DNA from: Escherichia coli
Lineage (GTDB): Bacteria; Pseudomonadota; Gammaproteobacteria; Enterobacterales; Enterobacteriaceae
DNA: 64,000 nucleotides
Assembly: GCF_044324875.1 (NCBI RefSeq)
Contig: NZ_CP172185.1
Direction: 5' to 3' (one strand)
The notes under the pieces were generated by a model. The model had not been told where the DNA came from, did no database searches, and saw nothing but the letters and a program-made list of their open reading frames with translations. Within the stretch, counting starts at the first letter, position 1; each line of letters begins with the position of its first letter. Of this stretch, positions 25,217-58,671 are shown in pieces. The position numbers were made by a program, and so were the translations under genes.

Positions 25217-26132
25217 GAATCTTGACCTTTTTTGCTGTTATCGCCACTCCCTGCCGTGGAAGTCAGCTTAGAACAATGTACTCCCCCAGGACGGCGTTTT
25301 GAAGGTCTGCAGAATAAGATTTTGCCAGAGGGGAAGACTCGATTGTGCTGTTAATAACTTAATAATGGCAAAATAATGAGGTGTATATGCTTAGTAATTA
25401 ATGTTATGTAGTGAATTGTTCTGATTCTTAATTGTGAGTGTGGTTTTTTTATCTGTAAGATAATTGTTTGAAAATGCCTCGTTTAAGAATTCACTAATGA
25501 ATCGTGATGATGATATTTCCGCATTACGGAGAGTTTAACAGCGTGATGATTTCCGAGGTGTCGTAATGGGTGCAAGGTGTGAAACTATTGTTAAGCGGGA
25601 TTAATGAATGAGGATGATGCTAATTAATTATTATTTAATATTCAAAAAGGTTTTGTTGTGCTTATTAATAATAGAAGATTACTTTGCCTAACATAACATA
25701 ACTTTGCATCAGATAATTCGCAATGACCCTTATAAATAAAAGGTTTTTGGGGTAAAATGCTCGCATAAATGACGGATCCCTGCTCTTGATGCCGCCTCAC
25801 CATTGCTGTTTGTACGTGTTCGCGTATGACCAGCGATGCTGCACGAGAGTGGAACAAGGACTCACATTTACATTTATACAAACACGCGCATGTCATAAAT
25901 ACAAAAGAGTGAGTAACTTAATAGATATGCGATTCCTGAAGATATATTCTGTGATCTACTTCAGGCATTATAACGGAACAATGTGAGTCGCTTTTTTAGT
26001 GCAACTCATATGCATTTTTACTTTCGTCCGGGTTCCGGATGAAACTGCCAGGGAGGCACATTACAAATGGAATTGCTTGTTTGTGTGTGCACAGCATTAA
26101 CCAGCTCAGTATGAGCCGCCAGTAAGTGATAA

Positions 26133-27074
<942 letters not shown>

Positions 27075-27127
27075 TCGACGGACCATAGATAATTTCTGAG
27101 ACAATAGTGTAAAAACGAGCCGCTGGG

Positions 27128-27167
27128 GGTGTTTTAAACCCCAGCGGCTTTTTTTTAGTAAAAAGCC
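27128..27167 (+). terminator. rho-independent terminator after lrhA
   Basis: gccgctggggg-tgttttaaa-ccccagcggc followed by tttttttt. Confidence 0.8.
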
Positions 27168-27703
27168 TTCCTCGTATCGTGCAGAACGTACAAAACTGTT
27201 CATTTTTCAATCACCAGAGATTCACGTCCCGAACGCACAAATAATCGCCTGAAAAAAATCACCTGCTACAATGATGTTAAAAAATACGTAAATTTGTTGC
27301 TGCGTTTTTGTTATGGAATGACAAAAGCGTGTCACAGATCAAGAAAATACTCTCTTTTGGGGGGAGGAATCGACACAAATTCCTGTCAAAATAGACCCGT
27401 ATTTTTTCCATTGCTTCACAACGGACACGATTCAACAACATCTAATTATCCTGGAGTCGTCAAGGATCTGGGGTGAAAGGGCATTAAATGCTAATGGTGT
27501 TGATATTATGTAAACTAATGTGAAGAAACTTTTGTTAAAGTTGACAAAAGGTTATAGAAAGGAGTAAAAGACCACATCAATTAGCTGTATAAAAGAATTT
27601 CTACAGTGATTGTAAGGTTTTTTTTATTCCTCCCCATGAATCGATGTGGCGTCCATCTGCCGTGAAGAGCAGTGAATCTGGCGCTACTTTTGATGAGTAA
27701 GCA

Positions 27704-28147
27704 ATGAGTATGTCAACATCCACTGAAGTCATCGCTCATCACTGGGCATTCGCTATCTTTCTTATCGTTGCCATTGGCCTGTGTTGCCTGATGCTGGTAG
27801 GCGGTTGGTTTTTAGGCGGTCGCGCACGCGCAAGGTCGAAAAACGTTCCGTTTGAATCCGGTATCGACTCGGTCGGCTCCGCCCGCTTACGCCTGTCCGC
27901 CAAGTTTTATCTGGTGGCCATGTTCTTCGTTATCTTCGACGTTGAAGCGCTGTATCTGTTCGCATGGTCAACCTCTATCCGCGAAAGCGGCTGGGTAGGC
28001 TTTGTGGAAGCTGCAATTTTTATTTTTGTGTTACTGGCAGGTCTGGTTTATCTGGTGCGTATTGGCGCGCTGGACTGGACGCCCGCGCGTTCACGCCGCG
28101 AGCGTATGAACCCGGAAACGAACAGTATCGCTAATCGTCAACGCTAA
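27704..28147 (+). CDS. nuoA: NADH-quinone oxidoreductase subunit A
   Basis: 147 aa membrane subunit, first gene of a 13-gene cluster in canonical nuo order. Confidence 0.95.
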
Positions 28148-57781: not shown

Positions 57782-58671
57782 CAGCGACTACCCGCAATTT
57801 GTTGGCAACCCAGCCAGCCTTCACGTCCGGCAATATTTCCGCGAACAACTTGCCCGAGCGGCAACGTCCCTGATAACAGTTCGCTTAAAGGGCAAAATGT
57901 CACGCCTTCCTGGGCTGCCCGTTTCAGGAGATCCACAAAATTATGCTGATAAGCGCAGCCTTCAACTTCTGCATGAATGGTATAAACCGGCATGCCTTTA
58001 TCTCGCAGGATGCGGTTGAGTAACCAACCGTTAAAATCTTCTGCTTTCACATCCCGACCAATCACTTCATCCCAGGTGGGTAAGGTCACCGGAATTTGCG
58101 CAGTACCGGGTTTTCCTGATTCGAGCAATGGACGAAACGGCATCGCCCCACGACAATCGCTGTTGTAGCGCAAATGGAACGCTTCTTTTGCTTCGATCAC
58201 CTGCTGGTCGGCACGCCAGCCAGCGGCTGCGGAGCAAGTTACCGGTTGGCCGATAATTTCTTCCAGGGTGCGAAGGCCGCGTGCGATATCGTCGACCATT
58301 GTTTGCCGATCCCAGTTACCGCTATGGGCTTGCCATGCATGGTGATCCCAGGCGTGCAGGCCGACTTCGTGGTGTTTAGCCGCTTCACGAATGATATCGG
58401 CATTGGCATGACCAATCTCTTTACCTGGCCAGGCCGTACCTGCCAGTAAAATATCCCAGCCATAAAGCGATGCCGCGTTTGAGCGCAGCATCTTCCACAA
58501 AAACCTTGGCTTCACCAGTCGCCAGAGATGGCGGCCCATATTGTCCGGGCCGACGCTGAAAAAAATGCTGGCCTGAATATTATGCTTACTCAAGATTTCC
58601 AGCAGACGCGGCACGCCTTCACGGGTGCCACGAAAGGTATCGACATCAATGCGTAAGCCGACTTTGGTCAT
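57781..58671 (-). CDS. arnD: Ara4FN-undecaprenyl-phosphate deformylase
   Basis: 296 aa polysaccharide deacetylase-family protein. Confidence 0.85.

Follow-up and report, generated by a model that had tools for sequence, protein, structure and literature searches.

The nuoA-N control region of Escherichia coli: conserved upstream blocks, a sigma-70 promoter and a terminator-like hairpin in the nuoA leader

The window, a stretch of 64,000 nucleotides from the Escherichia coli contig NZ_CP172185.1, contains the genes lrhA (26136-27074) and nuoA (27704-28147), both on the plus strand and separated by a gap of 629 bp. About 547 bp of the gap lie between the lrhA terminator, which ends at 27156, and the nuoA start. 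The gap ranks second in length among the 39 intergenic gaps of the surrounding 40 kb and first among those with co-directional genes; this length is unusual and is not a chance event. The G+C content of the gap is 0.38, as compared with 0.52 for the window. Of 5,426 complete E. coli genomes, 5,423 contain a single copy of the stretch, with no RefSeq feature annotated beneath it, and the K-12 annotation of the gap has no feature either. The spacer is 100% identical to that of strain 118UI and agrees with K-12 MG1655 at 620 of its 629 positions. Most of the nine differences are concentrated in 27157-27270 and none falls in 27212-27569. Position 27570, the last base of the -10 element of the main promoter, is G in the window strain and A in K-12. 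All the binding and RNA-end data discussed below come from K-12 and were projected onto the identical or near-identical window sequence (window position = 27704 + (2405072 - K-12 position) for version 3 of the K-12 sequence, or 27704 + (2403094 - K-12 position) for version 2).

The gap begins with the Rho-independent terminator of lrhA. It folds with -29.3 kcal/mol (z = -5.8), and pairing in its stem is retained in the alignment despite sequence change between genera. A simple terminator scan did not report it because its loop is 10 nt long and loops over 8 nt are missed by the scan. A search of Rfam 15 at E = 1 or better gave two weak, noise-level matches, both over this terminator, and zero matches in the leader or the upstream region.

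The interval 27168-27703 had been described in the initial annotation as a gene-free stretch with no credible ORF, and both statements are accurate: no ORF of the gap is conserved among 79 other species. Eight ORFs of 9-60 amino acids can be drawn mechanically in the gap, and their start, frame and stop are jointly kept in at most 12 of these 79 Enterobacteriaceae. The two upstream ORFs of the leader, 27636-27665 and 27643-27699, which are candidates for leader peptides, are intact in 4 and 0 of the 79 species, respectively. They are preceded by a sequence resembling the anti-Shine-Dalgarno rather than by a Shine-Dalgarno sequence, and single-base indels in Kosakonia, Pluralibacter and Yokenella disrupt their frames. 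Small ORFs and leader peptides were rejected on account of this lack of conservation.

Conservation was examined at the orthologous locus of 80 Enterobacteriaceae species, whose spacers were aligned and in which E. coli was compared with the 79 others. The spacer is 606-664 bp long in 76 of the 79. Yersinia, Serratia, Dickeya and Erwinia have a LysR-type gene, lrhA-like by its domains and position, 637-707 bp upstream of nuoA. Agreement with the E. coli base amounts to 0.31 over 27168-27270, 0.70 over 27271-27540, 0.93 in the core promoter and 0.75 in the leader; the identity of 0.45 at third codon positions of lrhA served as the neutral yardstick. From 27271 on, blocks of 8-45 bp with 87-100% identity occur, and the constraint is very uneven. 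The alignment indicates that only 27271-27703, about 430 bp, is under selection, and that 27168-27270 drifts at the neutral rate. The features of the region are listed in Table 1.

Table 1. Features from the lrhA terminator to the start of nuoA, in window coordinates
Feature	Position	Strand	Elements and remarks
Rho-independent terminator of lrhA	27110-27156	+	Stem 27117-27128 / 27139-27150 (12 bp, G+C-rich); T8 at 27149-27156; A-run at 27111-27115
Unconstrained spacer	27157-27270		Identity over 27168-27270 in 79 species (0.31) is below the 0.45 yardstick
Distal ArcA-bound region	27275-27317	+	Three TGTTA-type direct repeats; ChIP-seq site 'nuoA2' (Park 2013); overlaps conserved blocks 27274-27284 and 27295-27302
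Near-invariant 38-bp block, FNR-bound region	27315-27352		Conservation 0.89; palindrome TGACA-N6-TGTCA at 27319-27334; half-site ATCAA at 27338-27342
G-box, inverted repeat and extended -10 of weak upstream promoter	27360-27393	+	G-box GGGGGAGGAAT; inverted repeat AGGAAT-N8-ATTCCT; extended -10 TGTCAAAAT (27384-27392); conserved blocks 27360-27370 and 27378-27393
Invariant block ACGGACACGATTCAACAAC	27421-27439		Conservation 0.95; just upstream of minor 5' ends (5' end 27435; database start probably at about 27441-27452)
Conserved block with perfect palindrome	27475-27497		Palindrome GCATTAAATGC (27481-27491); plus-strand RNA 3' end at 27479
Proximal ArcA-bound region	27497-27527	+	Three direct repeats with 11-bp phasing; site 'nuoA1' (Park 2013)
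Main sigma-70 promoter	27525-27579	+	UP-like A/T tract 27525-27540; TTGACA 27541-27546; 18-bp spacer; TAAAAG 27565-27570; starts A27576 and A27579
5'-terminal leader hairpin	27578-27612	+	In MFE and centroid folds
U8 run and invariant CU-rich box	27618-27635	+	Box AUUCCUCCCC; unpaired in centroid fold; conservation 0.91 over 27620-27642
Terminator-like hairpin	27646-27691	+	Outer stem GUGGCGUC / GGCGCUAC (27646-27653 / 27680-27687); inner hairpin 27657-27672 (CUGCC...AAGAGCAG); U-tract 27688-27691
RyhB pairing region	27699-27715	+	Covers the ribosome-binding site and the two candidate start codons, ATG at 27704 and at 27710

The main promoter is of the sigma-70 type. Its -35 element matches the consensus at all six positions and lies directly behind the A/T tract GAAACTTTTGTTAAAG, and its -10 element, which is TAAAAA in K-12, matches at four of six and is without the final T. 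A strict promoter scan found no site in the interval because of this missing T, which is a threshold artefact and not evidence of absence. A perfect -35 combined with a poor -10 is consistent with a promoter at which bound factors determine the output. The block 27525-27569, spacer between the two elements included, has an identity of 0.98 over its 45 bp in the 80 species, and the promoter core is recognisable also in Yersinia, Serratia, Erwinia, Mixta and Chimaeribacter. This extreme conservation of both the core and the spacer suggests that the core promoter is contacted by some further factor.

Several groups have mapped nuo promoters or RNA polymerase in K-12. The mapped nuo promoters all lie inside the interval, in agreement with its earlier designation as the regulatory region of the operon. 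Two 5' ends, represented by 4,218 and 1,744 reads and situated 128 and 125 nt ahead of the ATG (Kim 2012), coincide with the starts given in Table 1, both of which lie within 5-9 nt downstream of the -10 element. Genomic SELEX with the RpoD holoenzyme recovered TTGACA-18-TAAAAA in the K-12 lrhA-nuoA spacer (Shimada 2014). ChIP-seq placed a sigma-70 peak enriched in air at window position 27567 and another, enriched without oxygen, at 27409 (Myers 2013), and the 5' ends obtained by 454 sequencing were 27399 and 27435 (Mendoza-Vargas 2009). Judging from Table S6 of Park 2013 and the numbering used by Chareyre 2019, the start sites of the older literature would correspond to about 27614-27625 and 27441-27452, that is, to about -88 and -263, as opposed to -128/-125 for the dominant start in the genome-wide data. 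The end near -88 falls on the 3' foot of the 5'-terminal leader hairpin and may have arisen by processing or by a stop of the reverse transcriptase. The dominant start and the extreme degree to which core and spacer are conserved together suggest that the older promoter map needs revisiting.

The nuo regulatory region as such is already known, and its control by ArcA, FNR, NarL, IHF, Fis, CRP, CpxR and RyhB is textbook knowledge. The complex multi-factor control proposed earlier for the whole interval is borne out by published K-12 data for ArcA, FNR, sigma-70 switching, CRP and CpxR. It does not extend to the first 100 bp or so, which are filler, nor to the last 128 bp or so, which are transcribed leader and belong to post-transcriptional control. 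The evidence for ArcA consists of two ChIP-seq regions reported with their sequences and a 2.7-fold repression of nuo (Park 2013). The window sequence is identical to that of K-12 at both sites, and a scan with the ArcA consensus gave four matches where 0.9 was expected. The centre of the FNR ChIP peak is at window position 27348, in the near-invariant 38-bp block (Myers 2013). An FNR-dependent change in nuo expression was not detected despite this binding (Table S9 of the same study). The FNR dyad TTGAT-N4-ATCAA has zero matches at up to two mismatches, and beneath the peak only the ATCAA half-site is found. According to the same study, nuoA has two promoters, and its other known regulators are IHF, NarL and Fis, in addition to ArcA.

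Position-weight-matrix scans had been proposed as a way to locate the individual sites. Run as consensus scans, they did not locate them: matches to FNR, IHF, the NarL 7-2-7 arrangement, Fis and CRP were near, at or below chance, IHF having no match at all and Fis and NarL 7-2-7 counts close to those expected. Exact NarL heptamers occur twice, with 0.3 expected, and one of them, TACTCCT at 27560-27566 on the minus strand, lies in the invariant spacer of the main promoter. CRP binds in SELEX, and the promoter activity is lower in a crp mutant. Binding of CpxR to the nuo promoter has been reported, without a site position. A CpxR-like box, GTAAACTAATGTGAA at 27510-27524, has one mismatch to GTAAA-N5-GTAAA (0.1 such matches expected by chance) and overlaps the proximal ArcA site. 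Counts for NsrR and PdhR were at or near chance. A Cra site was considered and rejected: the eight Cra-like matches (2.9 expected) are a weak excess, and although two TGAATCG half-sites lie in invariant blocks, nuoA does not occur in the text of the Cra ChIP-exo paper.

The remaining conserved blocks lie between the FNR peak and the proximal ArcA site. The extended -10 TGTCAAAAT is followed by the 454 5' end at 27399 and by the anaerobically enriched sigma-70 peak at 27409. Term-seq found a 3' end at K-12 position 2405297 (window 27479) with 31,207 reads (Adams 2021). The blocks of 27315-27497 might be read as encoding a small protein that has escaped annotation, or a non-coding RNA with structure, instead of being protein-binding DNA. 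Over 11-38 bp they are near-invariant and thereby more strongly conserved than many transcription factor sites, and they are accompanied by the weak plus-strand 5' ends at 27399 and 27435 and the 3' end at 27479. This explanation is very improbable. There is no conserved ORF, Rfam has no matches in the interval at E = 1 or better, and the inverted repeats show no compensatory changes. Furthermore, the body of the putative transcript (27440-27475) is poorly conserved and its promoter is conserved, and ChIP has placed ArcA, FNR and sigma-70 on the DNA of 27315-27497. A long-range pairing of the G-box (27361-27370) with the CU-rich box of the leader (27626-27635) was also rejected. A 10-nt inverted repeat arises in 16% of shuffles, all the changes are one-sided, and the mapped starts all lie downstream of the G-box.

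The interval closes with the transcribed leader of 125-128 nt. Its 5'-terminal hairpin covaries, eight of the 11 pairs changing on both sides among 74 distinct sequences, and 63 distinct hairpin sequences fold alike. The CU-rich box that follows resembles the anti-Shine-Dalgarno sequence and has the form UCCUUCCC in Yersinia, Serratia, Dickeya and Erwinia.

The 3' half of the leader contains the terminator-like hairpin, which RNAalifold found unaided. In its 8-bp outer stem, 98.8% of the cells of the alignment pair, as compared with 16-51% when the partners are slid, and double changes occur from GC to AU or the reverse in 15 sequences and between CG and UA in 14. The inner hairpin and its loop (CAUCUGCC-N3-AAGAGCAG) are invariant. 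UUUU follows the outer stem directly, and the median energy of the hairpin is -15.2 kcal/mol. A covariance model found one copy in the window and, in each of Serratia, Pectobacterium, Yersinia, Chimaeribacter, Dickeya, Erwinia and Mixta, one copy immediately before nuoA (E = 6e-12 to 1e-6); in Leminorella it found no copy. The element is thus present upstream of nuoA in four families of Enterobacterales, and no Rfam family matches it. An extension of the outer stem, AUCGA / UUGAU, was rejected as a conserved feature: the share of sequences in which a pair is formed ranges, over its five pairs, from about half to more than 95%, with no consistent covariation, and it is lineage-specific.

The Term-seq tables of Adams 2021 contain 3' ends at K-12 positions 2405086 and 2405082, which are window positions 27690 and 27694, 14 and 10 nt before the ATG. 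The reads number 282,730, 475,924 and 124,622 in three conditions. The end has a Rho score of 0.82 and is classified as not Rho-dependent ('No'), and its intrinsic terminator score is 11.6 with a cut-off of 3. These data appear in the tables only; the text of that paper does not mention nuo. Partial intrinsic termination at the leader hairpin, just before the coding region, is the most likely interpretation. The two ends could instead be intermediates of decay or processing, the hairpin blocking 3'-to-5' exonucleases or shaping the ribosome-binding region with no termination taking place. An interior of 26 nt, such as the outer stem has here, is unusual in an efficient intrinsic terminator, and the U-tract is short, with a median of five T (range 3-6) in the 8 nt after the stem; these two properties somewhat favour the hairpin as an exonuclease stop. 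Moreover, nuo is well expressed in spite of the hairpin, the 3' position moves from -14 to -10 between conditions, and most 3' ends in 5' UTRs were ascribed to processing in Adams 2021. On the other hand, the terminator score is far over the cut-off, the 3' end is within the U-tract right behind the stem, and 71 of the 74 distinct sequences retain a T-rich tail, with four or more T among the 8 nt that follow the stem. Processing is a serious alternative, though judged somewhat improbable.

Termination at the leader hairpin may further be conditional. According to this possibility, the hairpin is an attenuator whose read-through is set by some signal (a protein, Hfq with a small RNA, or the choice of promoter), or else the leader RNA of about 115 nt is itself functional as a sponge or in trans. 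The 3' ends are abundant and Rho-independent and score as an intrinsic terminator, and other 3' ends of this kind in 5' UTRs yield functional RNAs (Adams 2021). The covarying outer stem and the invariant inner hairpin and loop amount to more constraint than a plain terminator needs, and this constraint has been kept across the four families. An attenuator would be expected to have a switching device, but a conserved antiterminator pairing was not found. The candidate CCACATC / GATGTGG (27572-27578 with 27643-27649) pairs fully in 20 of the 80 species and its central pair is broken, uncompensated, in 39, so that it was rejected. Nor is a leader peptide conserved among the 79 species, and a literature search gave no paper tying nuoA to attenuation. 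An attenuator or functional leader RNA is put forward only as a tentative suggestion, on the doubtful side.

The leader ends in a region of pairing with the small RNA RyhB. AAGCAAUG with its flanks is complementary to the core region CAUUGCUU of RyhB in a duplex calculation, in which the core complementarity alone was used, an unconstrained prediction having given a meaningless full-length duplex. Repression by RyhB was reported by Chareyre 2019, who confirmed the pairing by means of compensatory mutations. The AAGAGCAG segment of the inner hairpin is an (ARN)3-like motif and could bind Hfq beside the RyhB site.

The interval is very probably the control region of the nuoA-N operon, which encodes the proton-pumping NADH dehydrogenase I, and works in layers. 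The first layer is about 115 bp of unconstrained filler after the lrhA terminator. In the second (27271-27540), conserved blocks of DNA are bound by global regulators: ArcA, on its distal and proximal regions, represses in the absence of oxygen and FNR binds near 27348, and the other upstream blocks probably serve Fis, IHF, NarL, CRP and CpxR. The weak upstream promoter with the extended -10 and a start at about 27399 also belongs to this layer and gains sigma-70 in the absence of oxygen. The main sigma-70 promoter, starting at 27576 and 27579, forms the third layer and is occupied mainly in air. In the fourth layer, the leader, the 5' hairpin probably protects the 5' end, and the U8 and CU-rich tract next to it would be single-stranded. 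A large fraction of the transcripts ends, probably through partial intrinsic termination, at the hairpin and U-tract 10-14 nt before the start codon. Immediately downstream, pairing of RyhB, with Hfq, over the ribosome-binding site and start codon turns translation off under iron limitation.

The conserved leader hairpin seems to have remained uncharacterised so far and to be a candidate attenuator. It is proposed, with considerable reservation, that the nuoA leader of Enterobacterales contains an undescribed conserved RNA element, in which an invariant CU-rich box precedes an 8-bp stem that covaries, the invariant inner hairpin CUGCC-N5-G-A-GCAG and a U-tract, and which acts as a conditional attenuator for complex I or as the source of an abundant regulatory leader RNA of about 115 nt. 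If read-through is regulated, the 15-kb operon would have an extra checkpoint for the synthesis of complex I between initiation and RyhB-controlled translation.

The nuoA-N promoter region of Pseudomonas putida, studied by the Teras lab (2018), comprises two promoters ahead of nuoA, with four Fis sites in a stretch of about 300 bp. No sequence relationship to the window was found, and the regulator set and genomic context differ there. The K-12 nuoA-N regulatory region (Bongaerts 1995; Wackwitz 1999; database-curated with two promoters, ArcA, NarL, FNR, IHF and Fis) is the same locus with the same regulators, from which the window strain differs by its G instead of A at 27570. The premature 3' ends in 5' UTRs described in Adams 2021, for example that of the ispU 5' UTR, resemble the nuoA leader in having a hairpin with a U-tract, a Rho-independent end and a high terminator score. 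The nuoA leader, which was neither discussed nor tested there, differs in that 26 nt, and not a small loop, lie within its covarying stem, its inner hairpin is invariant and the element is conserved across Enterobacterales. The promoters of cydAB, cyoABCDE and sdhCDAB are similar to that of nuo in their long A+T-rich upstream regions with several ChIP-seq ArcA regions, in the input from FNR and nucleoid proteins and in the control of the leader by RyhB; nuo is set apart from them by the unusual conservation of its spacer length and of its promoter core, which over 45 bp reaches 0.98 in 80 species.

The main sigma-70 promoter upstream of the nuo operon is invariant except for the final base of its -10 hexamer. 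The present strain has G at this base, as do E. albertii and two further E. coli strains, C7 and 439, whereas K-12 and essentially all other genera have A; outside Escherichia, G was found in none of the 79 other Enterobacteriaceae species compared. Unusually for a spacer, the sequence between the two promoter hexamers, AAAGGTTATAGAAAGGAG, does not change from genus to genus. Within it, on the minus strand and overlapping the -10 hexamer, is a perfect match to the NarL heptamer, TACTCCT.

A divergent haplotype, carrying 13 substitutions in 48 bp, was seen in strains C7 and 439, the two in which it was examined and which stand for 1,043 of the 5,423 complete E. coli genomes carrying the lrhA-nuoA spacer, at 90-95% identity. 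It spans the conserved palindrome and the proximal ArcA/CpxR-like site, and the TGT-type repeat cores are retained. Several of its variants are identical to those of E. albertii, which suggests that the haplotype is an old or imported allele.

Features of the lrhA-nuoA region and its surroundings
Feature	Window position	K-12 position
alaA-lrhA divergent gap	~25217-26135
3' ends within the long lrhA leader (Adams 2021)		2406691 and 2406927/33
Term-seq 'primary' 3' end of lrhA	~27105	2405672/3
RNA 3' end, + strand	27479	2405297
Divergent haplotype	27483-27530
Promoter spacer	27547-27566
NarL heptamer, minus strand	27560-27566
Polymorphic -10 base	27570
Annotated nuoA start (ATG)	27704
Second nuoA ATG (ATGTCAACA)	27710
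Minor 5' ends inside nuoA	~27722-27727
Weak leader-model match	58454-58502

Conservation of the annotated nuoA start stops at the Enterobacteriaceae: the corresponding codon is TAG in Serratia, and an ATG is likewise missing at this position from Dickeya and Erwinia. The second ATG is found in 7 of 8 outgroup genera, Leminorella having ATGCCTACA in its place. The second ATG may therefore be the true start. Minor 5' ends have been mapped inside nuoA, near its start, by Kim 2012 (40 reads, attributed to nuoB) and by Mendoza-Vargas 2009 (at +23). The covariance model of the terminator-like hairpin in the nuoA leader RNA gave one weak match elsewhere in the window (14.8 bits, E = 0.34), which was taken as chance.

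For lrhA, the 3' end labelled 'primary' in published Term-seq data falls 31 nt past the stop codon, upstream of the terminator hairpin and not in its T8 tail. Another 3' end, supported by 31,207 reads, borders the conserved palindrome block, upstream of the main promoter. It lacks terminator features, and may mark where transcripts from the upstream promoter meet a roadblock or are processed. The alaA-lrhA gap, at 919 bp, is longer still than the lrhA-nuoA gap; Kim 2012 mapped the start of lrhA transcription to 371 nt before its ATG, and Adams 2021 mapped 3' ends within the long leader.
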